Shown here one piece after another: positions 6,652 to 64,000 of a DNA stretch of 64,000 nucleotides; within the stretch, counting starts at the first letter, position 1, and the number at the start of each line of letters is the position of its first letter. Under the pieces are notes generated by a model. The model was given only the letters and a program-made list of their open reading frames with translations. It had not been told where the DNA came from and searched no databases. The stretch is from positions 2,982-66,981 of the forward strand of contig JBBQFD010000001.1 of the NCBI GenBank assembly GCA_038321575.1, written 5' to 3'. Origin of the DNA: Bacilli bacterium (GTDB lineage Bacteria; Bacillota_I; Bacilli_A; RF39; UBA660). A program made the translations under genes and the position numbers.

Positions 6652-6671
6652 AAAAAAGGACTAAGTCCTTT

Positions 6672-7295
6672 TTATTTTAAATTCTTAACTAAATCAGTTA
6701 TATAAGGTAGAGCCACAATGAAAGCTGTTAATATAATAAATAATACTACAATAAAGATTATTCCTACCTTATTGCTTTTTTCTTCACCATTAACATGACT
6801 AATTGAAGCATTGTTAACAACTGCATCCGGATTAATCGCTTGTTTAGCTAATAATAAAGTATTATCTAACTCATCACTTAAATCAGGGCTTTCTACATTA
6901 ACTAATTGATCAACATTAGTAGTCACTTCAATTGCTGGTTCATTTACCACAACTGGCGTTACCACTGGTTGGACAACTGGTTCTTCTGTATTAAAGATAT
7001 TAATTGGATCTGGAACCATTGTTTTTTCAATTACTTCTGGTTCACCAAAAAATATATTAGCATTTGTTGATAACGAATTATCAGCCGTATATGTAGTATC
7101 TGCATAAGTAGTTGGTTGCACAATTGGAGCTACTGTTGGTTGAACAACTGGTTCTATAACTGGTTGTGCAATTGGAGCTACTGTTGGTTGAACAACTGGC
7201 GCTTCTGCAAACAATACTTCAACAGCTGGTGCTGCTACTTCTTCCACGTCATCAATTATTTCAATATCATCATCTAAATTAATTTTATCGTTCAT
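6672..7295 (-). CDS. Pro/Val-rich repetitive protein with C-terminal membrane anchor
   Basis: The protein has an acidic N-terminus, tandem (V/I)(A/V/E)P(I/V)VQPT-type repeats and a C-terminal hydrophobic helix (GIIFIVVLFIILTAFIVALPYI). Confidence 0.6.
   Translation of the reverse strand: MNDKINLDDDIEIIDDVEEVAAPAVEVLFAEAPVVQPTVAPIAQPVIEPVVQPTVAPIVQPTTYADTTYTADNSLSTNANIFFGEPEVIEKTMVPDPINIFNTEEPVVQPVVTPVVVNEPAIEVTTNVDQLVNVESPDLSDELDNTLLLAKQAINPDAVVNNASISHVNGEEKSNKVGIIFIVVLFIILTAFIVALPYITDLVKNLK
7119..7220. repeat. ~51-nt tandem direct repeat (2 copies) inside the Pro/Val-rich gene
   Basis: The 32-mer gcaattggagctactgttggttgaacaactgg occurs twice, 51 nt apart. Confidence 0.7.
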
Positions 7296-7358
7296 AATTA
7301 TAACCTCTCTTTACTCTACCTTGATTATACCAAATATTACAACTAATTAAAAGAGTTA

Positions 7359-8147
7359 TTATAGAGTTAATTCTTTTTTATTATAATTATAATAAATACC
7401 TATTATTGATAACAAAATAATTATTAATGACAATATCAAATATCCTATGTTCATATGATTATTTACTAAAATAAATCTGGCATTAAAATACTCAAATGGT
7501 GAGATATATTTTAAGAAATCAATCTTATCGCTCATCATTGATATTGTTTGAATAAAATATGTACCTAAAACAAGACCTAAACTAATACCCATCATCTTCT
7601 TAGTTTTATTATAATAGGTACTTATGAATAATGTCAGGAAGAAAAACACATATTGCATCATTAATGGAGCTATTGATAGATAAAACCATTTACTAAATTG
7701 CAAAGAATGGCTTAAACTAAAACTAGTATAAGTCATTAAACCAATTAATAAATTAAAAATAAAAATATATATAACCCCAACTATGATTTTATCCGTAATA
7801 ATCTTATTACGACTAATTGGTTTTGAATATAAGAATTCAATTGTCTTATCACTTTCTTCTTTAAGTAAAATATTAGCGCCCATTATCGATGCATAACAAC
7901 CACCAATAATTGTAATCATCATATACCCTTCAGTGGCAAACCAACCAAAGACAGAGCCGACACTAACAATGTCCATATTGAACATCTTCAATACATTCGG
8001 TGGGAAGCTCTTTAGAAATTGATCTAATTGACTAGATTGTAAATTCATAGCTGGATATATTAAAAATACCGTTATTAATATGAATATAATAATTGATGTC
8101 CATATAATTAAACTCTTTAAATTTAATTTAAATTCTCTTTTTAACAT
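7359..8147 (-). CDS. ABC-2 family transporter permease
   Basis: The 262-aa protein has six predicted TM helices and lies immediately downstream of an ABC ATPase. Confidence 0.7.
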   Translation of the reverse strand: MLKREFKLNLKSLIIWTSIIIFILITVFLIYPAMNLQSSQLDQFLKSFPPNVLKMFNMDIVSVGSVFGWFATEGYMMITIIGGCYASIMGANILLKEESDKTIEFLYSKPISRNKIITDKIIVGVIYIFIFNLLIGLMTYTSFSLSHSLQFSKWFYLSIAPLMMQYVFFFLTLFISTYYNKTKKMMGISLGLVLGTYFIQTISMMSDKIDFLKYISPFEYFNARFILVNNHMNIGYLILSLIIILLSIIGIYYNYNKKELTL

Positions 8148-9085: not shown

Positions 9086-10078
9086 TTATATCCAAACCGC
9101 AAATAAGATAGCGGCCATACTTAATATTAATCCTACAACCCAGAACATTTTAACAATATCACGTTCATCCCATCCTAATTTCTCAAAATGATGATGTAGT
9201 GGTGCCATTAAGAATACTTTTTTATTAAAGTATCTGCCCGCTATCATTTGAATTATACTTGATAAAGTTTCAATAACAAAGACACCAGCTACCACTATTA
9301 ATGTAACTTCATGACTTGTTAAAATAGCGACCGCGGCTAAGGTTGCCCCTAGTGATAATGAACCAGTATCGCCCATAAATATTTTAGCAGGATGAGTATT
9401 GAATAATAAGAAGCCAAATAATGATCCAACTAGAATAAAACAGAAGATTGCTATATCAGTATTACCTGCTGCCCATGTTGAATTCCAACTAATCATCCCA
9501 AAGGCAATAAAAGCAATGGCTGATAAACCAGCCGCAAGCCCATCTAAACCATCAGTTAAATTAACAGCATTACTACTAGCAACTAATACAAATAATAAGA
9601 ATATTCCATAGAACCATCCCATATTAATTGCAATACCTAAAGTATGAATATTTAATACTGGATCTAATCCACTTTGAGTAAAGATATAGAAGAAAATAAT
9701 TGCAATAAATAATTGACCAAATAGTTTTTGCATTTCGCTTAATCCAAAATTATTTTTTCTTTTAATAATTAAATAATCATCTATAAAACCAAGGGCTGCG
9801 TAAGCTACAAAGACAAATAAAACAATAAGTAAATTATCAGAGAACTCTATTTTATTCATAAATAGAAGGATCACTGCGGTTAATAAGGTTGGTATAATGA
9901 AAATTAAACCACCCATGGTTGGTGTCCCATCTTTTTTAGCGTGCTTGTCTTCTAAAAAAACACTTACTTTTTGTCTAACATTCATTTTTTTTAATAAGGG
10001 TATTGCTATTAAACCAGTTATAACTGATAAAACAAACCCAATCATTAACGCTAAAATAGCTTTTGCTAATATTAACAC
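9086..10078 (-). CDS. mraY: phospho-N-acetylmuramoyl-pentapeptide transferase
   Basis: The 330-aa polytopic protein has DDYL, NAVNLTDGLDGLA, FMGDTGSL and HHHFE motifs. Confidence 0.92.
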   Translation of the reverse strand: MLILAKAILALMIGFVLSVITGLIAIPLLKKMNVRQKVSVFLEDKHAKKDGTPTMGGLIFIIPTLLTAVILLFMNKIEFSDNLLIVLFVFVAYAALGFIDDYLIIKRKNNFGLSEMQKLFGQLFIAIIFFYIFTQSGLDPVLNIHTLGIAINMGWFYGIFLLFVLVASSNAVNLTDGLDGLAAGLSAIAFIAFGMISWNSTWAAGNTDIAIFCFILVGSLFGFLLFNTHPAKIFMGDTGSLSLGATLAAVAILTSHEVTLIVVAGVFVIETLSSIIQMIAGRYFNKKVFLMAPLHHHFEKLGWDERDIVKMFWVVGLILSMAAILFAVWI

Positions 10079-10198
10079 AACATCACTCCTAATTCTTTTA
10101 AGGTATAACTATTATAACATTCTAAAGGACTATTTGTATATCTTAAACAGAAATTTTATAGATTACTTGTCAACTAATTGTAGAAAAAATCATATCTT

Positions 10199-11560
10199 TT
10201 AGATATGATTTTTTAAATATTCACTTACTGTTTCAAAATCATTAAATGGTATTTTATGATCTTTCATAATAATAAATTCTTCATGACCTTTACCTAATAT
10301 TAATAACATATCGTTTTCAGTCAGCATATCAATGCCTTTTGCAATCGCTTTAGCGCGATCAAGTTCAACTATATAATTAGTTTTATCAGAACCAGCAATC
10401 ATGTCATTGATAATTTGTTGTTCATCTTCGGTATGTGGATCTTCATTAGTAATAATTGCCAAATCGGCAGCATTCGTAACCATCTTTGTCATAATGGGGC
10501 GTTTTAAACGATCACGATCACCAGTACAACCAAATACTACATATAATTTACCAACTAAAACCTTCTTAGCAATTTCTAAAATCTTTTCAATTGCATCTGG
10601 TGTATGAGCGTAATCGATAATAATCATATTATTTTTATAATTAATTATTTGCATACGTCCTGGCGGCGCTTTTAAAACGGGGATCATTTTACTAATATCT
10701 TTATAGCCCATTTCATACATTAAAGCAATTACTAATAATAAATTATATAAGTTGTATTTACCAATTAAAGTGGTTTCTGTATTATAAACTTCATCTTTAT
10801 ATTGATAAGTAAAAGTTGTATTTTGACTACTCATTTTATAATCAGTAATTCTAAAATCACCACCATTAATACCATATGTATAATTTTGTTTATCTGGTAA
10901 TAAGAAGTAATTCTTATAAGCATCATCAAAATTAACAATTGCCTTACCATCTGTTTTTAATTTTTTAAATAATCTTTGTTTGTCAATCGCATAATTTTCC
11001 ATTGTTAAATGGAAATCTAAATGATCTTGGGTCAGATTAGTGAACGCAGCATAATCGAACTCTAAACCATCAACTCTTTTATATGCTAAGCCTTGACTAC
11101 TTAATTCCATAACCATATTAACACAACCCGCTGCTTTCGCATCAAGCATCATATTATATAGTGCTATTAAATCGGGGGTGGTATTATCTAAACGATTTAT
11201 TTTATCAATAATATAAAAACCAATTGTTCCTATATAGGCTGTCTTTTCGCCTAATTGATTTAACATATTGTGTACTAAAAAAGCACAAGTAGTCTTACCA
11301 TTGGTTCCTGTAATACCAATAAAACGCATCGTTGCAATATCACTACCATATGTATCTTTTAAATATTTAATTAAATATTCCCTAGTATCGGTTACAATTA
11401 AAGCATCAACGCTGTAAGTACCTTCCTCAGCAATTATACGAGTAGCACCATTTTTGATAGCAGCATCAATATATGAATGGCCATCACTTTCAACACCGCG
11501 CAAAGCAATAAAAGTATCCCCTGGGACTACTTTTCTAGAATCATCTTTAATGTTCATCAT
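10199..11560 (-). CDS. murE: UDP-N-acetylmuramoyl-L-alanyl-D-glutamate ligase (MurE-type Mur ligase), atypical specificity motif
   Basis: DSRKVVPGDTFIALRG, GITGTNGKTT and DYAHTPDA are present. The DNPR-motif position reads TNEDPHTED. Confidence 0.75.
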   Translation of the reverse strand: MMNIKDDSRKVVPGDTFIALRGVESDGHSYIDAAIKNGATRIIAEEGTYSVDALIVTDTREYLIKYLKDTYGSDIATMRFIGITGTNGKTTCAFLVHNMLNQLGEKTAYIGTIGFYIIDKINRLDNTTPDLIALYNMMLDAKAAGCVNMVMELSSQGLAYKRVDGLEFDYAAFTNLTQDHLDFHLTMENYAIDKQRLFKKLKTDGKAIVNFDDAYKNYFLLPDKQNYTYGINGGDFRITDYKMSSQNTTFTYQYKDEVYNTETTLIGKYNLYNLLLVIALMYEMGYKDISKMIPVLKAPPGRMQIINYKNNMIIIDYAHTPDAIEKILEIAKKVLVGKLYVVFGCTGDRDRLKRPIMTKMVTNAADLAIITNEDPHTEDEQQIINDMIAGSDKTNYIVELDRAKAIAKGIDMLTENDMLLILGKGHEEFIIMKDHKIPFNDFETVSEYLKNHI

Positions 11561-15113: not shown

Positions 15114-15611
15114 TTAATTGATTATTTCATTATTAATATGATGTTCAAACTCATAATTTTTACTAGCTAATTTATCACCTATAAATACAGGATTAAATCC
15201 CATTGTTTTTAATTCAGCCGTTGTTGCCCATTTGAAATCCATTTTCATATCACGTTCTGGCCCATGTTCAATAATAATATGATCACTTAGATTCACTTGT
15301 TTAATATCAACTGGCTCAACAATATAGTAAAAACTTATTTCATGAACTTTTTTACCATTATTTTTATAAAAGAAATTCTCAGCAATCGATAAAAGTTTAA
15401 CTATTTTAACTGGATAACCGATTTCTTCTTCCATTTCCCTTAAAACAGCATGTTTAGTATCTTCACCTAACTCAACATGACCCCCAGGCAAACAATAACG
15501 ACCATTATCATTCATCTGAACAGTTAATATTTTATCATCAATGATTACTATTCCGTTAACTCTATATTTAAAATCAATAGCATCAGTACTTATTTTTACA
15601 TCTTTACTCAT
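15114..15611 (-). CDS. NUDIX hydrolase
   Basis: A Nudix box is present (GGHVELGEDTKHAVLREMEEEIG). Confidence 0.85.
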   Translation of the reverse strand: MSKDVKISTDAIDFKYRVNGIVIIDDKILTVQMNDNGRYCLPGGHVELGEDTKHAVLREMEEEIGYPVKIVKLLSIAENFFYKNNGKKVHEISFYYIVEPVDIKQVNLSDHIIIEHGPERDMKMDFKWATTAELKTMGFNPVFIGDKLASKNYEFEHHINNEIIN

Positions 15612-27317: not shown

Positions 27318-27968
27318 CTATGTTTTATTCTCTATATTATTAACCTCTTTAAATTTTTCTATAAATTTGCTTTTATCGATTAATAATTCACTTACTAATC
27401 TTAAATAATTCTTATATGCTTCATCTTGAATATACATCTTGGCATATCCATCGATCCCGAACTTTTCTGTTATGTGCTTATATGATCGTTCTATTTGTTG
27501 ATCTAAAGTTAAGTTTGGGAAATGTTTTAGTCCATATAAGTAAGTTCTTTTAACGGCCATATCAACATCTATATTTCTATCAGCCGAAGATAATAATTTA
27601 CCATAAATACTTCGTGGTTCACTTTTCAAAGAAGCTCTGTGATCTTCAATTGCTTCTTTGATAATCACTAATTCCTGTGGTGTAAAAAAGTCTTTTACTG
27701 CTTCATCTTTAAAAAACATTTGTGCTGAAACCATTTCATGGTTTTTAGCATCTACATGATGCCCAATATCATGATAAGCGGCGGCAGCATATATCATATT
27801 TGAATTAAGATTTAATTCGTGATTTAATTCAAAACTTCTTTTAATAACATAATTAATATGACTAATATCATGTGCTTTATCGTTTTTGTCATATATAGGG
27901 AAAACATTAATTTCTATGTATTTAATTAATTGCTCATTATCCATTGTTTTTTTCAAATTAATCACCAA
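27318..27968 (-). CDS. HD-domain phosphohydrolase
   Basis: YAAAAYHDIGHHVD plus downstream His/Asp residues typical of the HD superfamily are present. Confidence 0.75.
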   Translation of the reverse strand: MVINLKKTMDNEQLIKYIEINVFPIYDKNDKAHDISHINYVIKRSFELNHELNLNSNMIYAAAAYHDIGHHVDAKNHEMVSAQMFFKDEAVKDFFTPQELVIIKEAIEDHRASLKSEPRSIYGKLLSSADRNIDVDMAVKRTYLYGLKHFPNLTLDQQIERSYKHITEKFGIDGYAKMYIQDEAYKNYLRLVSELLIDKSKFIEKFKEVNNIENKT

Positions 27969-28077
27969 GATTATTATAACATGTTTTACAAAAAATGAAG
28001 CAATAGTGAAGTGAAACTTATTTTGGACACCTTATAAAAAACAAAAAAACTCTTATAAAATAAGAGTTCATTATCAA

Positions 28078-28120
28078 ATGGTCGGGAAATAAAGGGGATT
28101 CCCAAATTTTTATTTTTACT
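28078..28120. repeat. degenerate copy of the tRNA-Pro 3' end (att-like direct repeat a)
   Basis: The sequence aatggtcgggaaataaaggggattcccaaattttt shares its first 14 nt with the tRNA-Pro 3' end at 29505..29520 (aatggtcgggaaa). Confidence 0.6.
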
Positions 28121-28682
28121 ATTTAATTATTTTTTTTAACAGCTCGATTAACTTATCAAATACTTCTTCTCTATTTATTGATGTGTCTTTATATATAAAG
28201 CCTTTTTCTTTACATATATTTTTATTTTCTTGCTCTATTTTATGTATATCACCAAAATGAGACTTAATTTTATCATAAGACCAATCATGTGTGTAATCAT
28301 TTCTATTATCATTTTTCATTATATTTTGAATAATATCTTCGTTTGTTAAATTGTTGTGACCTAAAAATATTACTATATCATCATCGTTTAATAGCTTTCT
28401 TGCCATTTCAGAATCAATCAACGAACCCTCAACAATACTACCATATTTATTCTTGTTAAATTCTCTATTCCAATTGACAAATTCAACAAGGAATTCTGGA
28501 AACACAGTTACTCTTGCCTCGCTATATCTATTACCCATATCCAAATTGGGCAATGCTTTTATGAAACCATTCCTAACCGCTTCCATTGATACTAATGTGT
28601 ATTGCGGGAATTTTTCTTTAATCATACTTGCTAAAGTTGACTTGCCACTTCTTGCAGTTCCTAAAATATATATATTTTTCAT
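28119..28682 (-). CDS. P-loop NTPase / small-molecule kinase-like protein (AAA_33 / zeta-toxin-like fold)
   Basis: An N-terminal Walker A (ILGTARSGKSTLA) and a later hhhhD Walker B-like stretch (IVIFLGHNN) are present in a 187-aa protein. Confidence 0.6.
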   Translation of the reverse strand: MKNIYILGTARSGKSTLASMIKEKFPQYTLVSMEAVRNGFIKALPNLDMGNRYSEARVTVFPEFLVEFVNWNREFNKNKYGSIVEGSLIDSEMARKLLNDDDIVIFLGHNNLTNEDIIQNIMKNDNRNDYTHDWSYDKIKSHFGDIHKIEQENKNICKEKGFIYKDTSINREEVFDKLIELLKKIIK

Positions 28683-28800
28683 TTCATACTCCTCTCATTA
28701 TTAATTAAATTATACATTATTATGCCAAAAATTAAAAGTCATAGAACTTTTATATTCCATGACTTATTAATAAAAAACCAACAATTTGGGTATCTTTTAA

Positions 28801-28845
28801 AATGGTCGAGATATAAAAGGGACTCCCAAATTTTTGTTATTTCTT
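28801..28845. repeat. degenerate copy of the tRNA-Pro 3' end and downstream flank (att-like direct repeat b)
   Basis: The sequence aaatggtcgagatataaaagggactcccaaatttttgtt is preceded by cttttaaa, as is the tRNA-Pro 3' end. Confidence 0.6.
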
Positions 28846-28854
28846 GTTTTTAAA

Positions 28855-29412
28855 TTAACGGTTTTTTTCTATTATATTCTTATATACCTCAATTAAATCT
28901 TTATCCATCATATTTTCAGGCAATGTTTCTAAAGAAAAGAATTTTAATCCTCTGGATTCTTTCATAGACTGAAAATATCCATTTCCTTTATCAATTATTT
29001 CTTGATAATTGCTTCCTAATGTTCCAAAGTATTTTTTTGTTATATACAACATTGTATTATTATACACAATATCGCCATTTGGGTATGAATTTTTTCTGGT
29101 TTCGCCAGATACGGCTTTTACAAGCACTAAATTTTCAGCTTCAGCAGTTAGCCCTGTTTCTTCAGCTAGTTCTCTTGTGGCAACCTCTTCAAATGTTTCC
29201 CCTAATTCTTGTAATCCACCAGGAATACACCATAAATCGCGATCAGTACGATGTTGTAATAATATTTCGCCACTCTCATTAACAACAATAATAGCGCTTC
29301 CATTTTGAAATAAAGGCATGTTTCTAAATTCGTTTTTTAATGCGTTTCTCAATTTTAAAATATAGCTCAAAATTTTCTCCATATTAAATCTCCTGCAAAT
29401 ATAATATAACAT
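28855..29412 (-). CDS. NUDIX hydrolase
   Basis: A Nudix box is present (GGLQELGETFEEVATRELAEETG). The true start is probably MEKILSY, about 29382. Confidence 0.8.
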   Translation of the reverse strand: MLYYICRRFNMEKILSYILKLRNALKNEFRNMPLFQNGSAIIVVNESGEILLQHRTDRDLWCIPGGLQELGETFEEVATRELAEETGLTAEAENLVLVKAVSGETRKNSYPNGDIVYNNTMLYITKKYFGTLGSNYQEIIDKGNGYFQSMKESRGLKFFSLETLPENMMDKDLIEVYKNIIEKNR

Positions 29413-29507
29413 AATATATTGTTTTTAGAAAGAAAAACCGTGGAATTTTATATTGCTCCAACGATTTTTTATGTTAATTCCCAAAAAGTTGGGAAACTCT
29501 TTTAAAA

Positions 29508-29584
29508 TGGTCGGGAAAACAGGATTTGAACCTGCAACCTCCTGGTCCCAAACCAGGCGCACTACCAAGTTGTGCTATTTCCCG
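29508..29584 (-). tRNA. tRNA-Pro (anticodon TGG)
   Basis: The reverse complement reads CGGGAAATAGCACAACTTGGTAGTGCGCCTGGTTTGGGACCAGGAGGTTGCAGGTTCAAATCCTGTTTTCCCGACCA. Confidence 0.88.
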
Positions 29585-34609: not shown

Positions 34610-35797
34610 CTATGATATTTGATGAGCTTTTATATATTCCTCAATATCACTTACACGATCTAATTGTTCCCATTTAACATTTAAATCATTTCTACCCATA
34701 TGACCATAACTTGCTAATTGTTGATATATTGGACTAGTTAATTCTAATGTATTAATGATATTTTGTGGTGTTGAATTCCACAAATCTTTAATTAAAGCAA
34801 TAATATAATCTTCACTATAAAAACTAGTATTAAAAGTCTCAACTAAAATTGATATAGGGTTAGCTACTCCTATTGCATATGATAATTGAATTTCTAATTT
34901 AGAAGCCACCTTTGCCGCCACTAAATTCTTCGCGATATATCTGGCATAATAAGCGGCACTGCGGTCAACTTTAGTAGCGTCTTTACCACTAAAAGCCCCA
35001 CCACCATGGCGAGAGTAACCGCCATAAGTATCAACAATAATCTTACGCCCAGTTAAGCCGCTATCACCAAGTGGACCACCAATTACAAAACGGCCCGTTG
35101 GATTAACTAAGATTTTAGTGTTATCATCGATTAAATTCTTTGGTATTATTTTTAAAATTACTTCGTTTATGATATCATTTTTAATTTGGTCTTGGGTAAT
35201 CTCTTCATCATGTTGAGTTGATACGATTATCGTATCAATTCGCCTAGGAATACCATCTTCATATTCAACTGTTACTTGGGTTTTACCATCAGGTCGAAGG
35301 TAACTTAGAATTTGATTTTTCCTAACTTCTGATAATCTTTTCGCTAACTTATGAGCAAGTGATATTGGTAATGGCATTAACTCTATTGTTTCATTACATG
35401 CATACCCAAACATCATTCCTTGATCACCTGCGCCAATTTGGTTTATAGACCCATCTAATTTAGATTCTAAGGCTTTATTAACACCAATTGCAATATCACT
35501 TGATTGTTTATCAATCTTAATGATTATTTCGCAGGTATCACCATTAAAACCATATAAATCAGTGGTATAACCAATATCCTTAATTGTTTTACGAACAATA
35601 GCTTCGATATCAACTATCTTTGATGAAGTAATCTCCCCCATTACTAAAACAAATTGTTTAGTAACTGCGACTTCACATGCGACATGGCTACTTGGATCAA
35701 CACTTAAATAAGCATCTAATACGGCATCAGATATTTGATCACATATCTTATCAGGATGCCCTTCGGTAACAGATTCGGAAGTAAATAATCTTTTCAT
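34610..35797 (-). CDS. metK: S-adenosylmethionine synthetase
   Basis: [32 protein letters not shown] and the [10 protein letters not shown]-loop are present. Confidence 0.95.
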
Positions 35798-35825: not shown

Positions 35826-35962
35826 AAAAAAACTCCGACACATAGTCCGAGTTAGATTCCTTTTTCTTATCTCTCGGCTTTAGCCGCAGGATTTAGCACC
35901 TAATTTAATAGGTTGCTGGGTTTCACAGGACCTGTATCCTCCACCGCTCTTGATAAGGTAAT
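35826..35962 (-). promoter_or_regulatory. SAM-I (S-box) riboswitch with terminator-type expression platform, leader of metK
   Basis: The minus strand reads CTTATCAAGAGCGGTGGAGGATACAGGTCCTGTGAAACCCAGCAACC...GGTGCTAAATCCTGCGGCTAAAGCCGAGAGATAAG. A hairpin (aactcggactatgtgtcggagtt) and a U7 run follow immediately before the metK RBS. Confidence 0.85.
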
Positions 35963-37362: not shown

Positions 37363-38556
37363 TTCAGCTAATATCTTCTTCATTGTTTCTTTGTATTTTT
37401 CGACTCCTTCTTGATTGAAGGCATCAACATCACTAAGATGACCATTAACCGCACAAGAAATCATAAAGAATTGAAGTATATATCCTAAATTAAAAGTTGT
37501 TAGTTTATCAACATTAATAATATTATTAATAACACCATCTTTAAAGTGGGCAATCGAGGTTGCTTTAGATGCAATATTATTTATTTCATTTAGACTCTTC
37601 TTATATTCATCAACTTCAATATCTTTTTCAACTTCTAAAATATTTATAACGGTTTCAAATAAAATATGACTACCGTCTTGAATAAATTGTCCCATCGAAT
37701 GAAGATCTCTCGTATTTATAATCCCAATTGGTAAAGTACCTTTACCATCTTTACCTAATGATTCTGAATATAATTGTTTTAACCATTCAGTAAGTGCATC
37801 TAATTTTGGTTCATAAGCAACAAAAGCTTCAACCATCGTTCCCTTTTTATAAAGAATATCTCTAATAATAGCATATTTAATTTGATTATTAACAGTCTTT
37901 TGTGATTCGATGGCACCATCTAATAACTCTTCAATATTGATACCAGCTACTGCGATTGGTAATAAACCAACCGGTGTAAAGACTGAATATCTACCACCAA
38001 TATCATTAGGAATATCAAATGTCTTATAACCTTCAGCATTTGCTTTTCCATTACCACCCGTTAAAATAATACGTTCTTTTAACTCTTCACTTGAATATTT
38101 TTCTTTCATAATATCTAAAATAAGGTCAAATACAACTCTAGTTTCAAAAGTTGTTCCTGATTTAGATATGTAATTAACAATAATGTCTTTGTTTTTAATC
38201 AATTCTTTTAATTCAATCAAATATTCACTTGATAGAGAAGTCCCCAGAAAATATATTTCTGGTTTTTTTTGTTCGTTATAGAAATATGGACTCAATGATT
38301 CAATTACTGCTAATGAACCTAAGTAAGAACCGCCAATTCCTACTACTAAAAATGCATCACAGTTGTTTTTAATCTGTAAACTAGTCTTTTTAATCTCATC
38401 AATCAGTTCTTGCTTTTTTAGATTTTTAGGATAAGCCCAACCCATCATATTTTGATGAGTTTTAAAATAATTACTTAATTCTTTGATTTTTGGATCATAG
38501 GTCGCAATCTCTTCATCAGTAATATCACTATAGGTTTTAAAATCAAAACTTATCAT
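37360..38556 (-). CDS. pgi: glucose-6-phosphate isomerase (Bacillus-type Pgi)
   Basis: VVGIGGSYLGSLA, SKSGTTFET, GGRYSVFTPVGLLPIAVAG and EWLKQLYSESLGKDGKG are present. It overlaps the giant upstream gene by 4 nt. Confidence 0.85.
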   Translation of the reverse strand: MISFDFKTYSDITDEEIATYDPKIKELSNYFKTHQNMMGWAYPKNLKKQELIDEIKKTSLQIKNNCDAFLVVGIGGSYLGSLAVIESLSPYFYNEQKKPEIYFLGTSLSSEYLIELKELIKNKDIIVNYISKSGTTFETRVVFDLILDIMKEKYSSEELKERIILTGGNGKANAEGYKTFDIPNDIGGRYSVFTPVGLLPIAVAGINIEELLDGAIESQKTVNNQIKYAIIRDILYKKGTMVEAFVAYEPKLDALTEWLKQLYSESLGKDGKGTLPIGIINTRDLHSMGQFIQDGSHILFETVINILEVEKDIEVDEYKKSLNEINNIASKATSIAHFKDGVINNIINVDKLTTFNLGYILQFFMISCAVNGHLSDVDAFNQEGVEKYKETMKKILAE

Positions 38557-41500
38557 TCTTTACCTCCCATATTTACTATTATTATATGTTTTTTCTTATC
38601 ATCAATCAAGTTTATAAGATTATCTTTAACTTTTTTTTCATCAATCATTATACTACTTACACCTTCAGATACATGGTCTTTATTATTTACTTTAATATCA
38701 TAAATAGTATTAAGATACTTATAAGTAAACTCAAAATTTAACCATGTTGAATCAATATGAGGATTGATTGTTAAAGTATTACCTGTTTTTTCTAAACCAA
38801 TAATTTTTTCGATACCTATTTTATAAGCCCAACTAGCCGAACCGGTATACCAAGTCCAACCACCGCGACCAGCGTAATTATTTTTTGAATAAATATCGGC
38901 TGCAATAACATACGGTTCAGTTTTATATTTTAAAACATCTATTGCATTAGTAGTACGATTAATTGGATTAATCATTTTTAAATAGCCGTATGCTTTATTT
39001 ATTTCACCAATCTTAATTAATGACATAATATACCATAAGGTTGCATGGGTATATTGAGCTCCATTTTCTCTAACTCCCGGTAGGTAATCACTTATATAAC
39101 CAGGGTCATTTTTTTCTTCAAAGAAAGCGGGGCTTAATAATTTAATTAAATGATTATCGTTGTCAACTAATCTATTGTCGATTTCTTTAATTAATGGTTT
39201 TATATTACGTGGATCAATAACATTGCTTAAAATACTCCATGATTGTGATAATAAATCTATTTGGCATGAAGCATTATTCTTAGAACCAAGGGTGTCACCA
39301 TTATCAAAGAAAGCTCTTAGATACCAACTACCATCCCAAGCATTAGCATTAATTGATTTTTTTAATTCAATAGCTGATTCATGACACGTTTTAATAAAAT
39401 CAACATCTTCTTTAGGGGCAATTTCTTCTATCTTATTTAAAAGATCATATAAGAAAAATCCTACCCAAACACTCTCTCCGATACCTTTATTACCAACTTT
39501 ATTCATACCATCATTCCAGTCACCACTACCCATCAAAGGTAGGCCGTTGGTCCCTAGTTGATTTAACGCTTTAGTAATTGATAATTTTAAATGATAGTAA
39601 AGTGTTTCTTGAGTTGCACTATATGAATAATTAATGCCTTTTTCGTCTTGTTGTTCACCTAAGTGTTCACCTTCAACAAAAACTACTTTTTCATCTAAAA
39701 TGGTGTAATTATTAGTTACTTTTAAATATTCATATGTTACATATAATAGCCATAAATAATCATCAGAGAACTTAGTGCGTGCCCCTAACGATAATTCTTC
39801 ATGCCACCAATGTAGAACATCTCCTTCAATGAATTGGTGTTTGGCATGTTTTAAGATTTGATCTCTGGTAAAAGTTGGATTACTATATATTAAACTCATT
39901 GAGTCTTGTAATTGATCTCTAAAACCAATTGCGCCACCAACTTGATAGAAAGCTGATTTAGCATATAATCTTGATGCATAAACTTGATATAAATACCAAC
40001 CGTTCATCATATAATCAAATGATTTATCAGGTGTCTTTATAACAATGTTTGATAGTTTTTCTTTCCAGTATTCAACTACTTCAATAAATTCATTAGCGAT
40101 AAACTCTTTAGTTTGATACTTGTTAATAATATCTTCGGTGTTATTAGCACAACCAAGCATAAATGATAATTCTTTACTTTCATCTTTAAATAGATCAATA
40201 CTAATCGAGATTGTTTTTGTTGAGACATCATTTAAATCATATTTTACAATCTTTTCGCTTGATGACATAAATACTTTTTCATTTCTAAAGACTTTATTAT
40301 AAACATTTTGCATAATCAAACTATTTTGTGTAACATCAAAATCAACTAAAATATGAGAGTTAGTTTGTTCTTCCGTTTCACCTAAAACCGGTTTAATAAC
40401 AAAGTCGATATCTAATTTAATTTTAGTACTCTTCTTATTGTTAATTTTTATGTCATAAAGTTTTAGATTATCACTTCTGGGGACAAATACTTTTATTTCC
40501 ATATCATAATCTTCAGTATTAGCAATAAAAATCGAATACCCAAATCCGTGTTTTACTAGACTTGGAATAAACTTTTGTTTATTAATATAAATAGCTTCAC
40601 TAGCAGGATCACCTACTGCATCATTGCTCCATGATGTTAATTTAAACTGACGACTATTGTATGCATAAGTAAATCCACCTAGATTGTTAGTTATAACGGT
40701 TCCGAAAGTCTCATTAGCAATTATATTTGACCATGGCGCTGGTGTATCATTATTAAAAACGTGATACTCACTACCATTTTTACTAAACCCACCATATTGA
40801 TTGTCAAAATCAATCTTTGGAGATTTAGTTTCTAACAACGTTATTAAATTAGAAGTTTTGCTTACTTCTAATTTAATTGGTTCTAAAAGATCTAAATCAA
40901 ATATTTGTTGATTTAATGACTTATGAATTGAAGCATCAAAATATATTTTAGTAATTGTTTTAAACAACACTAATTCTTCATTACTCAATTCTGATATTGT
41001 ATATACATTCCCTGGTGAGTTTTCAAAATAATTTAAATTATTAATACGATACATCAAATTATTAATGTATTTAGCAACTAATTCTTTTTTACCATCAACT
41101 TCATTATTTATAATAACCACATCTAAATAAATAGCGCGGCTCTTATAAAACTCATAAGCTTGTAAGATTTCTTTTATAAAACCTGAATCCTCAGCATTAT
41201 CAATATTAACTAAGATTAATGGTAAATCACCAGATACTCCAAACTTCCATAAATTATCTTGCGATAAATTATTAATATGTAAGATTTCATGACGTTTTAT
41301 GCTAATTGGTAGTGTTTGATAAATGTACTTAAGCATAGTGTTATATGACATTAACTCACGACCATTTAAACCAGCATAGTGATTGCGCATATTATTTAAT
41401 ATAGTTGCCATTTCAAACGCAACATCAACTATTTTCTTATTATTATAAGTGTTAACTATTTCATCAATTTGTTCTCTTGACTTGCCGAAACCAACTAATA

Positions 41501-44500
41501 AGTAAATTATCTTTTTACTATTAGCTTTAATTTTAATATTCTTACGAATACTCATGATCGGATCAATCAAGTCATCAATATCACATGACAAACGTTCACT
41601 ATTACATATTTTAAAAGGATTCGCCGTAGTATTGTTACGACCAATGAAATTAGCGCGTGATGTTTCAAATTCAAAATTGATACTATCTTCACCATCAATA
41701 AACATACGATTAACCACAAAATACTTAGTATTTTCTTTAGTGCGTGAACTTCTCTTAAAGATTAATGATGATGTTTTCTCATCTATTTCACTAGCAATTG
41801 TTAAACTGTTAAAAGCACGATGTGCAATATCTTCTTCATTACGAGCCATAATAATTTCAGAATAAGACGTTACTTCTAAATTAATATCATCATTACTAGT
41901 ATTTTCAAAAGTAATTTTACGTATTTCCGCATTATGTTCCTTGGTAACCATGATTTCCGTATTAGTAATTATATCTTCATCTTCTCTTGTATACTTGATT
42001 CGATCACTAGCAAAAACCACACGATATTTATCAGGTGCTTTCTTTGCTGGTAAATACGTATTGGTCCAAAAATTATTAGTTTTAAGATTTTTAATATATA
42101 TAAACACTCCGTAATTCTCATCCGTTACATTGCGGTAACGATTAATAAATAAATTTTTATATTTACTAAAACCTATACCGCGATCATTGATGAAAGTAGA
42201 GTAAAAACCATTAGATAAAACTCCCACACTAGGCATTGGCATAATACCAGTTTGTTCTCTAACGTCAGTATCTTGAATATCTCGTTTATAAGAATATTTC
42301 TTATAACGTTCTATTTTTAGATCAATATATGGTCTAATTTGAACTTTTTCTTTTAATAATAATTCAATTGCTTTAATGTTTTTATCAGCATGAAAATATT
42401 CTTGAATAATATTTTCGTGAAAATAATTAGCGATACTAGATAGTATCATCCCTTGATGATGTGAATAATAAGCTTTAACAACAACTTTATCTTCATTGTC
42501 ATAAGCTTCATATAAACCATATTTACCATACATATCTAATTTTTTAAGTTTCTTAATATTTTCATATACACCATTTGGATATCTACCCAAAGCCATTAAT
42601 GATCCATATGGAGCAATAACAATTAACGGGGTTTCACTATCTTGGAACTTTAAATGTGGGACCCCAAAAGCTTTATATTTATAATTTTGTGAGTCATCTA
42701 ATTCATTATAAGCTGATTCAGTTATACCCCATGGTAATTTGGGATCAGCTTCACGCATAAATTCTTTTTGAGCATAATACGCAAATAAATAAGTTTCATC
42801 TAATAAAGTGTGCTTATATGTTTTCATAAATATTAATGGCATATAATATTCAAACATTGTTCCAGTCCATGAAACAACACCTTTATATAGTTTATATTTA
42901 GTTAACGTCTTATCTAAGCAAAACCAATGTTTAAAAGGTACATCCCCTTTAGCAATAGCAATAAAACTAGAAAGGCGTGACTCTGATAAGAAATTATTAT
43001 AATGATATGGAACTAATTTACCTTCATTAATCGTATAACCAACACTAAAGACATCAAGATCATGATTATATAACTTAGAGAAATCAGTAGCAGCAATTAA
43101 TTTATTAACACGATATTCTAAAACTTTATAATGAGTTAAGTGTTCTAAGAATCCTTTTAAGACATATAACGATGAAACAAAATTACCACTATCAGCAGTT
43201 GATATAAAGAATGGTGGTATTGCTTTCATTTCATAAATATTATACCAATTATATAAATGACCATTCCATTTAGCTAAACCCTCAACACTCTTTAAAATAT
43301 TAGCTAATAAATCGATTGCGACAGTTTCGTTAATAATTTTTAATTCATAAGCTGAAATAACACTGGTTATCGATAAACCAACATTAGTTGGCGAAGTACG
43401 ATAATCTATCTTTTCTTCACGATTTGATTGAAAATTATCTGGCATCAAATAATTAAATTCTCTTGTTAAATAGTCCTCAAAGAAACTCCAAGTTCTGATA
43501 GCAATATCTCTAATTTCACCTTTAGCTTTGCCACTCAACGGTTGTGATTCATACTTAATATCAAGACTTATAAAGAACATTAAGAATGGCGCAAATATCC
43601 ATATCGAAGCCAAGAAGTATGCTACATAAATATAATCTTGTTTAAAATAGTATGCAAGCCATATTATTAATAATGTAAATAAATAATTAGCTTTAAAATT
43701 ATTAATATAAGTTAACAGATTATTTTTAGAACGCTTTTCCACTTCTTCCGAAGTAATCCAATTTAGTAAATTCTTTTTACTTATTAGCATGCGATAAACT
43801 GATTTAATAATCGCATCTAAATATAAACAAGTTTCATATGGCAATAGAGCTAAAATAATAAATGATTTTATAACTACTGCAAATATACCAGTAATTAAAT
43901 TCAAATAATACTTTAAAAATATATCATATTTTTGTTTTGAAAATATCTTAGCAAATAAATAAAAGAAGATTGGGGTCGCTATTATAATCATAACTATAAC
44001 CAAAGATATTGTTGGATTAAGTTTACTAATAGTAAATCCATATATGATTAATAACAGCAATGCTAAACTCTTTAAACTTCTAACTAAATTATCAAATATT
44101 TTCCACTTTTCAATTAAATTGATCGGATTTTTAACAACTTCGTTCTTTTTATTTCTTACTTTGTTTTTAAGCCAACTAATAATTTGCCAGTCACCTCTGG
44201 TCCAACGATGATGTCGACCAGCATCATTTAAGTATTTAGATGGGAATCCATCAAAGAATTCAACATCACTAACAAATCCACAACGTAAGTAATTTCCCTC
44301 TAACAAATCGTGGCTTAAAATAAGATTATCAGGGAAGTTATTATTGATTATTTCATCAAAAATCTCTAAATCATATATTCCTTTGCCAACAAAACTACCT
44401 TCATTAAAAACATCTTGATATAAATCAAAACTCTTGGTCGTATATATATCTAAACCTCCAAGACCTGCGAATAACTGTGTATATTGTGACTTATCAGTCG

Positions 44501-46259
44501 CTTCTAATTCAATACTAATTCGTGGTTGCATAATTGCATAACCAGCAATAACCTTCTTGCGGTCTTTTGATAAAACTGGTTTGTTCATTGGGTGAATCAT
44601 TGCCCCAATTAATTTTAAAGCAGTATTCAAAAGCAGTTTAGTATCTGCATCTAAAGTTATAACATATTTTATTTTAGTTTTAAAATCTTTAAAAGTATGA
44701 TAATTAAAATATAAATCTTGATCTTCTTTATTTAATTTGTGTAATAATAATTGATTAAAATGTAATAAAGCTCCTCTTTTTCTTTCATAACCTAAATAAG
44801 AAGCCTCACTTTCATTATAAAAGCGATTACGATACGCAAAATTAAATACCTTACTACCATATTTTTCGTTAAGTTGATTAACTTTCTTAATGCCAGCATC
44901 GATAACTATTTGATCCATAGCAACATTTTCTGTTGTCTCGCTAGTTACATCACCAAGCAAAGTAAAGTATAAATTAGTTGTACGGTTTGATAAATAATAT
45001 AACTCTAAATTATCAAACATTTGGTTAACTTTGTTAGCGCTATTTAAAATAGTTGGAATAACTACCATCGTACTATATTCAGCCGGAAAACTTTCTTCAA
45101 CTTTGATTTTAAATAGACTTTTCGTATTTACTGTTTTTAATAGTATTTGGTTTACTATATCAATAACATATCCTAATGACGGAATAAGTAAAAGCAGGAA
45201 CCCCGTTATTCCAAAAAAGTATGAACCTATAAACGACAAAATCAATGTTAATGCAAACACGGTTGTAATATACACAACAGTTCTTGTTTTATAATCTTTT
45301 TCTTCAAATAAATAAAATCCGATATGTTTTTCGTTATTGTCAGCAACTTTTACTAAGTTCTTAATGTATTGATACTCATTAATTTTATTATTTTTAACTG
45401 TTTTCTTAATTTGATTACGATATTCTGCTTTCGAACTTTCATACATCGAATCATATATATTAACTTTCTCATTAATTAATGCTTTTTCTGTATAACTAAC
45501 ACTAGAATATAGTAATTCCATCTTAACTTTAATCATTTTTTTAAGTGATTCAAACAAATTAACCATTAATAAATTCTCGTTTAATTTTTCTTCGTGTTGT
45601 TCTTTAATAATATCCTTTAATGACATACTATTTTTAATTAATAATTCATTTAATTTTTTAAAGACTGATTCTGAAATAGAATCAAGTTCACTTAATTTAT
45701 AGTTTAATTCTTCAATATAATAATGATTATCTAAAATCGAATTATTGATTTTTATATAATCATATATATTACGATTTTTCTTTTGATATTGATTTTTTTC
45801 GATTATTTTAAAAGCACGATCAATACTATGTGTTTCATCAAGTTTGTTGTTTAATTTCATTGCTAGTTTCTTAAGCTCATTAATTATGATAATTCTGAGA
45901 ACAATATTTATATAATCAAATTCATCATAAGAAAAATAATCTTTATTTGCCTCTTGGTAATTATTAATTTGTTCAAATACTATCGCCAAACTAAATTTGA
46001 AATTTTGTTGCACTAAAAAACTATAGAGTAATTCCCTTATTTGTTTCTTTCGACTATTTTTAATTTTTAAGATACTTTTCTTTTTTAAACTACCTTCAAT
46101 TTGAATTTGTTGTTCACTTATTAAATAGTAGTTATCAATAATCCATTCATTAATACTACCAACGCTTTGGTTTTGCTTTGTATATGAGACTAATTTTTTA
46201 TAATACACCGTTATATAATGAATATCCAAATTTAATTTTTTTAATACGATATTATTCAT
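38553..46259 (-). CDS. giant membrane glycosyltransferase-GH94 glycoside phosphorylase fusion, cyclic beta-1,2-glucan synthase (Cgs/NdvB/ChvB)-like, 2568 aa
   Basis: The N-terminal third has TM clusters flanking a GT-A-type region (LDADT DxD motif, HRWTRGDWQ). The C-terminal ~1000 aa has GH94 hallmarks (MGSGDWNDGMN, GGWTWYTGSASWAY). A middle alpha-helical region links them. Confidence 0.75.
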   Translation of the reverse strand: MNNIVLKKLNLDIHYITVYYKKLVSYTKQNQSVGSINEWIIDNYYLISEQQIQIEGSLKKKSILKIKNSRKKQIRELLYSFLVQQNFKFSLAIVFEQINNYQEANKDYFSYDEFDYINIVLRIIIINELKKLAMKLNNKLDETHSIDRAFKIIEKNQYQKKNRNIYDYIKINNSILDNHYYIEELNYKLSELDSISESVFKKLNELLIKNSMSLKDIIKEQHEEKLNENLLMVNLFESLKKMIKVKMELLYSSVSYTEKALINEKVNIYDSMYESSKAEYRNQIKKTVKNNKINEYQYIKNLVKVADNNEKHIGFYLFEEKDYKTRTVVYITTVFALTLILSFIGSYFFGITGFLLLLIPSLGYVIDIVNQILLKTVNTKSLFKIKVEESFPAEYSTMVVIPTILNSANKVNQMFDNLELYYLSNRTTNLYFTLLGDVTSETTENVAMDQIVIDAGIKKVNQLNEKYGSKVFNFAYRNRFYNESEASYLGYERKRGALLHFNQLLLHKLNKEDQDLYFNYHTFKDFKTKIKYVITLDADTKLLLNTALKLIGAMIHPMNKPVLSKDRKKVIAGYAIMQPRISIELEATDKSQYTQLFAGLGGLDIYTTKSFDLYQDVFNEGSFVGKGIYDLEIFDEIINNNFPDNLILSHDLLEGNYLRCGFVSDVEFFDGFPSKYLNDAGRHHRWTRGDWQIISWLKNKVRNKKNEVVKNPINLIEKWKIFDNLVRSLKSLALLLLIIYGFTISKLNPTISLVIVMIIIATPIFFYLFAKIFSKQKYDIFLKYYLNLITGIFAVVIKSFIILALLPYETCLYLDAIIKSVYRMLISKKNLLNWITSEEVEKRSKNNLLTYINNFKANYLFTLLIIWLAYYFKQDYIYVAYFLASIWIFAPFLMFFISLDIKYESQPLSGKAKGEIRDIAIRTWSFFEDYLTREFNYLMPDNFQSNREEKIDYRTSPTNVGLSITSVISAYELKIINETVAIDLLANILKSVEGLAKWNGHLYNWYNIYEMKAIPPFFISTADSGNFVSSLYVLKGFLEHLTHYKVLEYRVNKLIAATDFSKLYNHDLDVFSVGYTINEGKLVPYHYNNFLSESRLSSFIAIAKGDVPFKHWFCLDKTLTKYKLYKGVVSWTGTMFEYYMPLIFMKTYKHTLLDETYLFAYYAQKEFMREADPKLPWGITESAYNELDDSQNYKYKAFGVPHLKFQDSETPLIVIAPYGSLMALGRYPNGVYENIKKLKKLDMYGKYGLYEAYDNEDKVVVKAYYSHHQGMILSSIANYFHENIIQEYFHADKNIKAIELLLKEKVQIRPYIDLKIERYKKYSYKRDIQDTDVREQTGIMPMPSVGVLSNGFYSTFINDRGIGFSKYKNLFINRYRNVTDENYGVFIYIKNLKTNNFWTNTYLPAKKAPDKYRVVFASDRIKYTREDEDIITNTEIMVTKEHNAEIRKITFENTSNDDINLEVTSYSEIIMARNEEDIAHRAFNSLTIASEIDEKTSSLIFKRSSRTKENTKYFVVNRMFIDGEDSINFEFETSRANFIGRNNTTANPFKICNSERLSCDIDDLIDPIMSIRKNIKIKANSKKIIYLLVGFGKSREQIDEIVNTYNNKKIVDVAFEMATILNNMRNHYAGLNGRELMSYNTMLKYIYQTLPISIKRHEILHINNLSQDNLWKFGVSGDLPLILVNIDNAEDSGFIKEILQAYEFYKSRAIYLDVVIINNEVDGKKELVAKYINNLMYRINNLNYFENSPGNVYTISELSNEELVLFKTITKIYFDASIHKSLNQQIFDLDLLEPIKLEVSKTSNLITLLETKSPKIDFDNQYGGFSKNGSEYHVFNNDTPAPWSNIIANETFGTVITNNLGGFTYAYNSRQFKLTSWSNDAVGDPASEAIYINKQKFIPSLVKHGFGYSIFIANTEDYDMEIKVFVPRSDNLKLYDIKINNKKSTKIKLDIDFVIKPVLGETEEQTNSHILVDFDVTQNSLIMQNVYNKVFRNEKVFMSSSEKIVKYDLNDVSTKTISISIDLFKDESKELSFMLGCANNTEDIINKYQTKEFIANEFIEVVEYWKEKLSNIVIKTPDKSFDYMMNGWYLYQVYASRLYAKSAFYQVGGAIGFRDQLQDSMSLIYSNPTFTRDQILKHAKHQFIEGDVLHWWHEELSLGARTKFSDDYLWLLYVTYEYLKVTNNYTILDEKVVFVEGEHLGEQQDEKGINYSYSATQETLYYHLKLSITKALNQLGTNGLPLMGSGDWNDGMNKVGNKGIGESVWVGFFLYDLLNKIEEIAPKEDVDFIKTCHESAIELKKSINANAWDGSWYLRAFFDNGDTLGSKNNASCQIDLLSQSWSILSNVIDPRNIKPLIKEIDNRLVDNDNHLIKLLSPAFFEEKNDPGYISDYLPGVRENGAQYTHATLWYIMSLIKIGEINKAYGYLKMINPINRTTNAIDVLKYKTEPYVIAADIYSKNNYAGRGGWTWYTGSASWAYKIGIEKIIGLEKTGNTLTINPHIDSTWLNFEFTYKYLNTIYDIKVNNKDHVSEGVSSIMIDEKKVKDNLINLIDDKKKHIIIVNMGGKE

Positions 46260-63990: not shown

Positions 63991-64000
63991 TAATAATCAA

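Follow-up and report, generated by a model that had tools for sequence, protein, structure and literature searches.

In this study, we analyzed a 64,000-nucleotide stretch of DNA from a Bacilli bacterium of the RF39/UBA660 lineage (GenBank assembly GCA_038321575.1, contig JBBQFD010000001.1, positions 2,982 to 66,981 of the forward strand), referred to here as the window, with a focus on two small single-gene units that lie in tandem at the 3′ end of a proline tRNA gene. The window is part of a low-GC chromosome and carries housekeeping genes, among them those for ScpA/B, MraY, a Mur ligase, several aminoacyl-tRNA synthetases, and MetK. On its minus strand, ARAGORN placed 12 tRNA genes from 30612 to 29508, with an operon promoter reading TTGACA-17-TATATT at 30669-30641; tRNA-Pro(UGG), at 29508-29584, is the last of the 12 and is followed by a hairpin, as an initial annotation made from the sequence alone had described. 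Read along the minus strand, the order is tRNA-Pro, two hairpins, a NUDIX gene, repeat b, hairpins, a P-loop open reading frame (ORF), repeat a, a terminator, and an HD-domain gene. The features of the locus are as follows.

29508-29584, minus strand: tRNA-Pro(UGG), intact and with its own CCA encoded, the putative attL/attB-like anchor of the array (ARAGORN; Rfam tRNA, 69.6 bits).
29478-29507, minus strand: left-end motif 1, directly after tRNA-Pro, consisting of TTTTAAAAGAG and the hairpin TTCCCAA-CTTT-TTGGGAA.
29386-29471, minus strand: second hairpin or terminator (CGTTGGAG...TTCCACGG and a T-run), an AT-rich −10-like region, and the ribosome-binding site (RBS) of the NUDIX gene.
28855-29382, minus strand: NUDIX hydrolase gene, 175 amino acids (aa) from the ATG at 29382 (Pfam PF00293, E value 2.6e-15).
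28800-28842, minus strand: repeat b, consisting of the right-end motif CAAAAATTTGGGAGTCCCTTTTAT and the degenerate tRNA-Pro 3′ end ATCTCGACCATTT.
28689-28799, minus strand: left region of unit 2, with TTAAAAGATACCCAAATTGTTGG, a 12-bp terminator hairpin (28765-28736), an extended −10 element TGTATAAT (28716-28709), and an RBS.
28119-28682, minus strand: gene for a P-loop protein of 187 aa with a predicted nucleoside monophosphate (NMP) kinase fold, adenylate or UMP-CMP kinase-like (AlphaFold and structure match).
28076-28118, minus strand: repeat a, consisting of the right-end motif ATAAAAATTTGGGAATCCCCTTTAT and TTTCCCGACCATTT, an exact 14-nt copy of the tRNA-Pro end.
28036-28075, minus strand: the lead-in GATAATGAAC, the hairpin AACTCTTAT-TTT-ATAAGAGTT, and a T-run.
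27318-27947, minus strand: HD-domain phosphohydrolase gene, the first gene past the array (Pfam).

The two units are each about 0.72 kb long, are co-oriented, and carry one ORF apiece. The first begins 1 nt past a complete tRNA-Pro gene with its CCA, as is expected of insertion at a tRNA 3′ end that leaves the tRNA intact. A repeat search found that repeats a (28071-28120) and b (28795-28844) form a 50-nt direct repeat with 82% identity, and both carry the final 12 to 14 nt of tRNA-Pro. The sequence AAATGGTCGGGAAA occurs exactly at 28076-28089 and at 29505-29518, i.e., repeat a holds a perfect 14-nt copy of the tRNA-Pro end, and 28793-28811 in repeat b matches the tRNA-Pro end plus its flank (29498-29516) at 18 of 19 nt; the distal boundary of each unit is a direct repeat of the tRNA 3′ end. 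The repeats also share a 22-nt T-arm-like motif, TAAARGGGAYTCCCAAATTTTT, which occurs three times in the window against 0.01 expected. Its third occurrence is inverted and coincides with the hairpin just 3′ of tRNA-Pro; the repeat search identified this 7-bp hairpin as an inverted copy of the T-arm-like GGGAATCCC segment of the repeats. These alignments bear out the earlier description of repeats a and b as copies of the tRNA-Pro 3′ end with a T-arm-like segment, and they confirm the layout of two tandem single-ORF units ending in repeats b and a. As had also been stated, neither unit includes a recombinase: the one ORF in each is not recombinase-like by Pfam.

The repeat a region is base-for-base identical in an independent Logan assembly of the same strain (L065, self-hit P0015, a 2-kb contig; the strain is present in run SRR19962012), so repeat a is not an assembly artifact. 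The terminator that follows it has the layout of the tRNA-Leu and tRNA-Ala terminators of the window, and, as judged from this resemblance, the element at 28036-28075 is probably the original terminator of the tRNA operon. The flank motif TTGATAATGAAC was considered as a site common to the window and to two contigs of relatives (L002 and L009) and was rejected; it is the ordinary A-rich lead-in of tRNA terminators.

Each repeat is the start of a longer junction module of approximately 160 nt, which comprises a 24-nt right end, the copy of the tRNA 3′ end (the core), one or two hairpins including a terminator, and a −10 promoter element. This module recurs between differing ORFs, and essentially the ORF alone changes from one junction to the next. 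We aligned the left regions, from the tRNA-like core to the start codon, of window units 1 and 2, of unit 1 of L071, and of units 1 and 2 of L070. These five regions precede four different cargoes (NUDIX, P-loop A as in the window, a methyltransferase, and a second P-loop protein, P-loop B), and they are homologous throughout the 110 to 140 nt between the core and the ATG. They contain a first hairpin, which is optional, then the terminator hairpin with a T-run, and finally a −10 box and an RBS. The loop of the terminator, ATAAAAGT, is conserved, and its stems vary among copies yet still pair. The stretch at 29386-29471 is accordingly homologous to its equivalents in L070, in L071, and in the second unit, and the left region of unit 2 and the L071 stretch between tRNA-Pro and the methyltransferase gene share 77% identity. 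Left-end motif 1, the optional first hairpin, is kept after tRNA-Pro in L071 and is missing from L070 as a 28-nt indel. At the opposite end of the units, the 24-nt right end starts at or just past the stop codon, and several units have ATAAAAATTT either containing the cargo stop codon or coming immediately after it. Searches with nhmmer found three to five copies of the junction in the 64-kb window, including two distant ones.

63918-63984, minus strand: a further junction copy, AAATTTGAAAATCCCCTTTGATTCCATGCCAAATTAAAAG and the hairpin TCCCAATTATTGGGA (nhmmer E value 7e-13).
63164-63204, minus strand: a weak, degenerate junction-like copy after a GNAT gene, AGTAATTCCTTTTGCCTCCATACCAAAT and a terminator (nhmmer E value 0.03).

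The first of these begins where an ORF extending beyond the window has its stop codon; after it come a terminator, a −10 element, and the GNAT gene (63202-63822). The region 62524-64000 (minus strand) resembles a second small array, in which junction-like repeats bracket the GNAT acetyltransferase gene; a very degenerate tRNA-end-like stretch, TTGAATCACCATTTAATTAAT, follows a 193-aa ORF at 62524-63105.

The same repeat borders other genes in relatives, the nearest of which, among those compared, are 72 to 85% identical at the protein level, with none above 90%. Two metagenome contigs, L069 and L070, matched a strict pattern, TTTGGGANTCCCNTTTATNTCNCGACCA, that was derived from repeats a and b. 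On one strand of L069 lie a true 22-nt tRNA-Pro fragment, TCAAATCCTGTCTTCCCGACCA, a cupin gene followed by AAAAATTTGAAAATCCCTTTTGTTTCCCGACCATT, and an S51-peptidase gene followed by AAAAATTTGGGAATCCCTTTTATATCCCGACCATT. In L070, which is closer than L069 to the window locus, the order is tRNA-Pro (the 3′ two-thirds only, after a gap of Ns), NUDIX, a degenerate repeat, P-loop B, and a repeat. Profile searches added copies after an EamA gene in L001 and after NUDIX and DUF3795 genes in L079, and in L071 they found a methyltransferase gene directly after tRNA-Pro and then a degenerate copy of the repeat. The module thus bounds cupin, S51-peptidase, EamA, DUF3795, and methyltransferase genes as well as a P-loop paralogue.

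Between the window and L070, the NUDIX genes are 84% identical in nucleotide sequence and 85% identical in amino acid sequence, whereas the P-loop proteins that occupy the second unit are only 31% identical. Nevertheless, the L070 repeat that follows P-loop B matches repeat a at 38 of 43 positions, with 35 of 36 in the central block, and the similarity between the two genomes stops at CGACCAT. The four-fold degenerate sites of the NUDIX genes are only 60% identical (P of about 3.5e-5 against the 38/43 of the repeat); conservation of the repeat therefore greatly exceeds that of neutral sites. Between three genomes, the terminal repeats agree at 38 to 39 of 43 positions, more than repeats within one genome do (33 to 36 of 43), although cargo and flanks are unrelated. 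A second breakpoint of this kind separates L001 from L069, whose sequences agree perfectly (100%) over the 84 nt leading up to CCCGACCATT and lose all relationship past that point, where L001 continues into adh_short and EamA genes and L069 into the cupin unit. Hence, the content behind tRNA-Pro varies among relatives with breakpoints at the core, both in unit 2 (window and L070) and between L001 and L069. The gap of Ns in L070 (1440-1500) lies between two copies of the tRNA-Pro end, and it could represent two alleles, with and without an integrase element, that were collapsed by the assembler.

Elements that encode an integrase occur at the same tRNA in relatives. In L066, a tyrosine integrase gene adjoins tRNA-Pro, and a copy of the tRNA end plus flank (28 of 31 nt) lies 6.5 kb downstream; the HD protein of L066 is 73% identical to that of the window, and the order from tRNA-Pro to the HD gene is the same. 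The HD gene is also found downstream of tRNA-Pro in L068, and in both contigs other genes lie between the two. L070 carries an excisionase-sized ORF and an integrase with Arm-DNA-bind_4, SAM_3, and Phage_integrase domains, which is 45% identical to the L066 integrase, has one in-frame stop (contig positions 2355-2365), and ends 150 nt from a copy of CTGTTTTCCCGACCATTTATAAATAAAAAAC, right before the NUDIX unit. L066, L068, and L072 share an arm of approximately 130 nt with two ATTCTCTTA repeats just upstream of degenerate tRNA-Pro ends; in L066, the two ATTCTCTTA repeats lie near the integrase end of the element. By sequence comparison, at least three kinds of element with differing crossover points use the tRNA-Pro end, and the region behind it is variable throughout the clade.

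The L066 element (795-7367) is a classical 6.5-kb element whose genes include HNH, Rep-like, and an 800-aa SLFN/AlbA_2-NB-ARC protein, a defense-like cargo. In L001 (1-6100), a block of type I restriction-modification and GmrSD/HNH genes is closed by a tRNA-Pro 3′ fragment, as is a block of HEPN and DUF2806 genes in L072 (1-1700). Since these defense-type blocks end at such fragments, the arrangement suggests that defense islands also use the tRNA-Pro site. In L068, an Imm5-like gene directly follows the degenerate tRNA-Pro end.

Based on these comparisons, we consider it rather probable that the locus is a tRNA-Pro integration hotspot that carries miniature, integration-derived cassettes resembling cis-mobilizable elements (CIMEs). 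Each cassette would consist of a left region with one or two hairpins, which would terminate the upstream unit, and its own −10 element and RBS, followed by the ORF, the 24-nt right end, and a copy of the tRNA end. It can be envisaged that circles made up of the right end, the tRNA-like core, and the left region recombine serially with the tRNA-Pro 3′ end, each integration rebuilding the tRNA and shifting the earlier 3′ end downstream. Repeat a would then be the original tRNA end, since a native-looking operon terminator follows it, and repeat b would be the junction between the two units. The likeliest route is a tyrosine integrase supplied in trans, because relatives encode Arm-DNA-bind_4/SAM_3/Phage_integrase integrases at exactly the same tRNA end, and the presence of the L070 and L066 integrase elements at the same array or tRNA end is suggestive of trans-mobilization of the cassettes; another possible route is homologous recombination between the 160-nt junction modules, which would swap ORFs. 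What the sequences show is the anatomy, one family of junctions around differing cargo, integrase elements of relatives at this site, and breakpoints at the core; the order of events, the nature of the recombinase, and any continued mobility of the units are inferred. Serial site-specific recombination explains most of the features together, namely, the intact tRNA, the displaced tRNA ends, the native-looking terminator, the right-end motif, the integrase elements, and the breakpoints at the core.

Several observations weigh against this interpretation. Neither an empty site, nor a circular junction or excised form, nor strain-level presence/absence polymorphism was seen for the two units; in the empty-site comparison made through the HD gene, the nearest relatives are 72 to 73% identical and are rearranged. 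Atypical base composition was sought in the units relative to their flanks, and none was found, the GC fraction across the units (0.22 to 0.33) being equal to that of the flanks. Comparison of about 40 window ORFs with Pfam, the five largest being left out, gave no recombinase, and phmmer with the L066 integrase as the query found no match in the window. The ATTCTCTTA arm sites of the L066-type elements were sought in the cassettes without success, and the right end of the cassettes is unlike the right ends of the integrase-bearing elements. Junction copies are present at 63.2 to 64.0 kb, 34 kb from tRNA-Pro, where they bracket the GNAT gene. In addition, the cargo ORFs also exist without the repeat: the stop codon of a P-loop A gene in L001 (77% identical) runs straight into a terminator, which resembles the terminator after the L069 core, and NUDIX genes occupy other positions or contexts in L071, L072, L073, and L079. 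Finally, the repeat family is rare, with about six genomes or contigs; plasmid and phage BLAST searches for it gave no match, in viral contigs two right-end/core patterns had no match and a third had three chance matches in coding regions, and neither integrase query had a relative among the viral contigs. The serial tRNA integration put forward initially, with no integrase in the units, is thus borne out in large part as to its kind, through the use of the attachment site, the variable content with breakpoints at the repeats, and the native-looking terminator, whereas an empty or excised site was not seen. The idea that the units are decayed islets fared less well, as they hold no pseudogene remnants and their noncoding parts are a conserved terminator/promoter module; from their sequences, they look like a family of minimal cassettes and not like decayed integrative and conjugative elements (ICEs) or integrative and mobilizable elements (IMEs).

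We also entertain a stronger version of this interpretation, although we regard it as doubtful: an integron-like cassette system in a small low-GC Bacilli clade, with the tRNA-Pro 3′ end as the fixed entry site. In such a system, the acceptor-stem mimic of approximately 36 nt within the 160-nt junction would, tentatively, serve as the cassette recombination site. Single ORFs of unrelated families, lodged between such junctions, might be captured and shuffled by a tyrosine integrase of the phage type supplied in trans or through homologous recombination from junction to junction.

Among the alternatives, the one that survives best, although we consider it improbable, is that the junction module itself spreads as a tRNA-Pro-derived element similar to a miniature inverted-repeat transposable element (MITE) or a short interspersed nuclear element, composed of the acceptor-stem mimic, CCA, trailer, and hairpin, and that the genes beside it are ordinary chromosomal genes. 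The distant copy around the GNAT gene would be readily accommodated, as would the occurrence of P-loop A with the module in the window and without it in L001, and of NUDIX with the module in the window and L070 and without it in L071, L072, and L079; imperfect inverted repeats of 18 to 22 nt flank the core, and the first hairpin behaves as a 28-nt indel between the window and L070. However, the arrays are tied to tRNA-Pro itself or to genuine fragments of its 3′ end, the same site is used by integrase elements, the breakpoint between L001 and L069, past which the genes are unrelated, falls exactly at the core, and the P-loop gene is exchanged for a paralogue of 31% identity while the repeats on either side are conserved. 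Moreover, three to five copies in 64 kb are few for such an element, no transposase was seen among the window ORFs scanned, and the duplication is the tRNA end instead of the fixed short length that is typical of MITEs and insertion sequences (IS). An IS200/IS605-type mechanism, as in palindrome-associated transposable elements (PATE-like), was considered and set aside, as the left and right hairpins are unlike and no TnpA was seen.

We think it even less probable that the repeat is conserved for a role in RNA, as an mRNA 3′ untranslated region with a tRNA-Pro acceptor-stem microhelix (UGGGAA...UUCCCG-ACCA), a trailer, and a terminator. Such a region would mimic the end of the tRNA operon for RNase P, 3′ exonucleases, and the CCA-adding enzyme and so act in processing or stabilization, a role to which we likewise assign a low probability. 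The conservation far above the neutral level and the constant position of the repeat between stop codon and terminator, on the sense strand, would be in keeping with such a function, and the minimum-free-energy folds of repeat a and of the first L070 copy hold a 7-bp microhelix followed by CCA, with two compensatory changes (G:C to A:U in the first L070 copy and G:C to U:A in the L071 copy). The covariation of helix P1 was not above that of shuffled alignments, however (78 of 500 equaled the paired percentage and 100 of 500 the count of pairs changed on both sides); likewise, the GGGAATCCC palindrome has two compensatory changes, which did not exceed shuffled controls. The helix is broken without compensation in the copies L069_2, W_c, and L001_x, the predicted folds differ among copies, there was no relevant Rfam match at an E value of ≤5, and the true tRNA-Pro fragments and integrase elements at the locus are left unexplained.

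It is equally improbable that the tRNA-Pro 3′ end, terminator, and promoter were tandemly duplicated in place by unequal crossing-over or slippage and then decayed around fixed genes that were never mobile: the lack of a GC anomaly and of a recombinase among the window ORFs scanned, the purifying selection on the conserved NUDIX family (seen in its identity to L070), and the tRNA-Pro to NUDIX arrangement common to the window and L070 all agree with vertical inheritance, but the same repeats enclose different ORFs in different genomes, the NUDIX gene occupies the first position after tRNA-Pro in the window and L070 and the third position in L071, and the terminal repeats are closer across three genomes than within a genome while cargo and flanks are unrelated.

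The cargo genes themselves do not point to a shared function. A NUDIX ORF starting at 29412 had been annotated; the gene was confirmed (PF00293), but the ATG at 29382 is the likelier start because the homologues are 175 aa long. The product is a plain Nudix-box enzyme of a large, well-conserved family (1,736 matches at an E value of <1e-30, many of them 60 to 84% identical) that is also found in ordinary chromosomal contexts. The P-loop protein matched no Pfam family and belongs to a rare family, with 14 relatives in a search of 5.8 billion proteins. Its AlphaFold model (predicted local distance difference test score, 93) is that of an NMP-kinase fold and matches adenylate and UMP-CMP kinases with template-modeling scores of 0.65 to 0.70 at 12 to 20% identity. 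The suggestion that the cargo could serve resistance or antiphage functions found no evidence: in PADLOC, neither the P-loop nor the HD protein had a match and that of NUDIX was weak, the NUDIX family occurs in ordinary contexts, and the GC content is normal. A functional pairing of the P-loop and NUDIX proteins was not supported either, since the NUDIX protein of L002 belongs to another subfamily (sharing the Nudix box only) and each gene is found alone.

That mobile DNA inserts at the 3′ ends of tRNA genes, and that decayed islands accumulate in stacks at such sites, is textbook knowledge. The arrangement described here is reminiscent of the tandem ssrA islands of Dehalococcoides, in which each direct repeat is immediately preceded by a conserved motif and integration genes are missing from some of the islands (PMC3146451). 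In both cases, units are stacked behind one small-RNA gene, each bounded by a repeat of the 3′ end of that gene, and an element-derived motif without a match to the gene lies directly upstream of each repeat. The Dehalococcoides islands without integration genes were proposed to be cis-mobilizable, and island content varies among strains (PMC3146451). Unlike the units at tRNA-Pro, these islands are many kilobases long, with several genes, mostly a serine-recombinase module, and the transfer-messenger RNA gene as their target (PMC3146451), whereas the units reported here are approximately 0.7 kb long, hold one ORF and no recombinase, target tRNA-Pro, and repeat a 160-nt terminator/promoter module.

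CIMEs, and site-specific accretion at the 3′ ends of tRNA and other genes, have been defined in streptococci (PMC5704250). They carry attL and attR but no integrase or transfer genes, lie in tandem at a shared site, and are thought to be mobile by means of an integrase acting in trans; by definition, they are ICEs or IMEs that have decayed, and they usually measure kilobases and retain recognizable remnants (PMC5704250). Operationally, the units at tRNA-Pro fit the CIME definition in that they have att-like repeats at the sequence level and carry neither a recombinase nor a transfer gene. They differ in that they retain no remnants of integration or transfer genes that would mark the decay of an ICE or IME, and with cargo of differing families in a conserved frame, they look designed rather than decayed.

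Integrons and clusters of attC sites lacking integron-integrases (CALINs) consist of co-oriented, single-ORF, usually promoterless cassettes with a 3′ recombination-site-like repeat, and an array can lack a nearby integrase. Their attC sites have the signature R″/L″-L′/R′ with GTTRRRY, and IntI, with attI and Pc, lies beside the array. The units at tRNA-Pro are likewise co-oriented and single-ORF, lie tightly packed against the repeat at their 3′ end, have one fixed anchor, and carry repeats that are more alike than the cargo. In contrast to integrons, no IntI was found among the window ORFs scanned, the array is anchored at a tRNA gene in a host of a low-GC Bacilli lineage; inverted arms are present, but reading the sequence revealed no GTTRRRY, and each unit has its own extended −10 element and terminator. 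Furthermore, the apparent crossover lies between the inverted arms and not at one end, because the left arm stays with the next unit. The pdif modules of Acinetobacter plasmids are small, lack a recombinase, and are bounded by XerC/XerD dif-like 28-mers in inverted orientation, on which a tyrosine recombinase encoded by the host acts in trans. They resemble the present units as small modules of one or a few genes bounded by short sites without a recombinase; unlike them, the units at tRNA-Pro are chromosomal, their bounding sites are direct repeats that stem from the end of a tRNA gene, and nothing dif-like was seen in the sequence.

What sets this locus apart is its scale and regularity, in that each unit is one ORF within a conserved frame of terminator, promoter, 24-nt right end, and tRNA-end copy, this frame persists from genome to genome while the ORF changes, and one repeat is about 90 to 97% conserved beside cargo that is just 31% identical. 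Integration at tRNA sites is already known; the novelty is that the probable cassettes at this tRNA-Pro hotspot hold one ORF each in a conserved frame, and that they occur in a Bacilli lineage that has been little sampled. Were the units still being exchanged, they would represent a cassette system outside integrons in Firmicutes-type genomes, in which, to our knowledge, integrons are essentially unknown, and the junction paired with the tRNA-Pro end would provide a concrete substrate for studying how single genes are packaged for exchange. If they are fossils, they would provide a clean case of a tRNA hotspot at which a variable region grows by one gene at a time.

Other members of the P-loop gene family are also often found downstream of tRNA genes. 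In L002, an independent case, a P-loop homologue and the different NUDIX gene follow tRNA-Leu(CAA), and a 30-nt stretch repeats the tRNA end and flank in direct orientation (87%); the 1.7-kb islet that these repeats bound spans 9552-11290. On its reverse strand, this islet has a very hydrophobic ORF of approximately 27 aa (about 9750-9830), also present in L006, which could encode a small toxin-like peptide. In L007, the P-loop gene starts 34 nt after tRNA-Arg(CCG), and in L009, a P-loop homologue interrupts a syntenic tRNA operon behind tRNA-Phe, with a tRNA-Arg-like end on its downstream side. The same region of L009 (7300-10200) includes a reverse-strand 137-aa ORF between tRNA-Lys and tRNA-Arg and, at about 7660-7735, a tRNA-like sequence without an ARAGORN call.

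Elsewhere on the minus strand of the window lie an unrelated second NUDIX gene (15114-15611), an Imm5-like immunity-protein gene (55239-55730), and a 2,568-aa ORF (38553-46259) whose counterparts in L066 and L068, about 88% identical to each other in nucleotide sequence, have Glycoamylase/GH94 domains and are cyclic beta-1,2-glucan synthase-like. A SAM riboswitch (RF00162, 75 bits) at 35864-35959 precedes the S-adenosylmethionine synthetase gene (34610-35797), and a heliorhodopsin gene (PF18761, E value 1.3e-98) at 52279-53058 lies beside a short-chain dehydrogenase gene.

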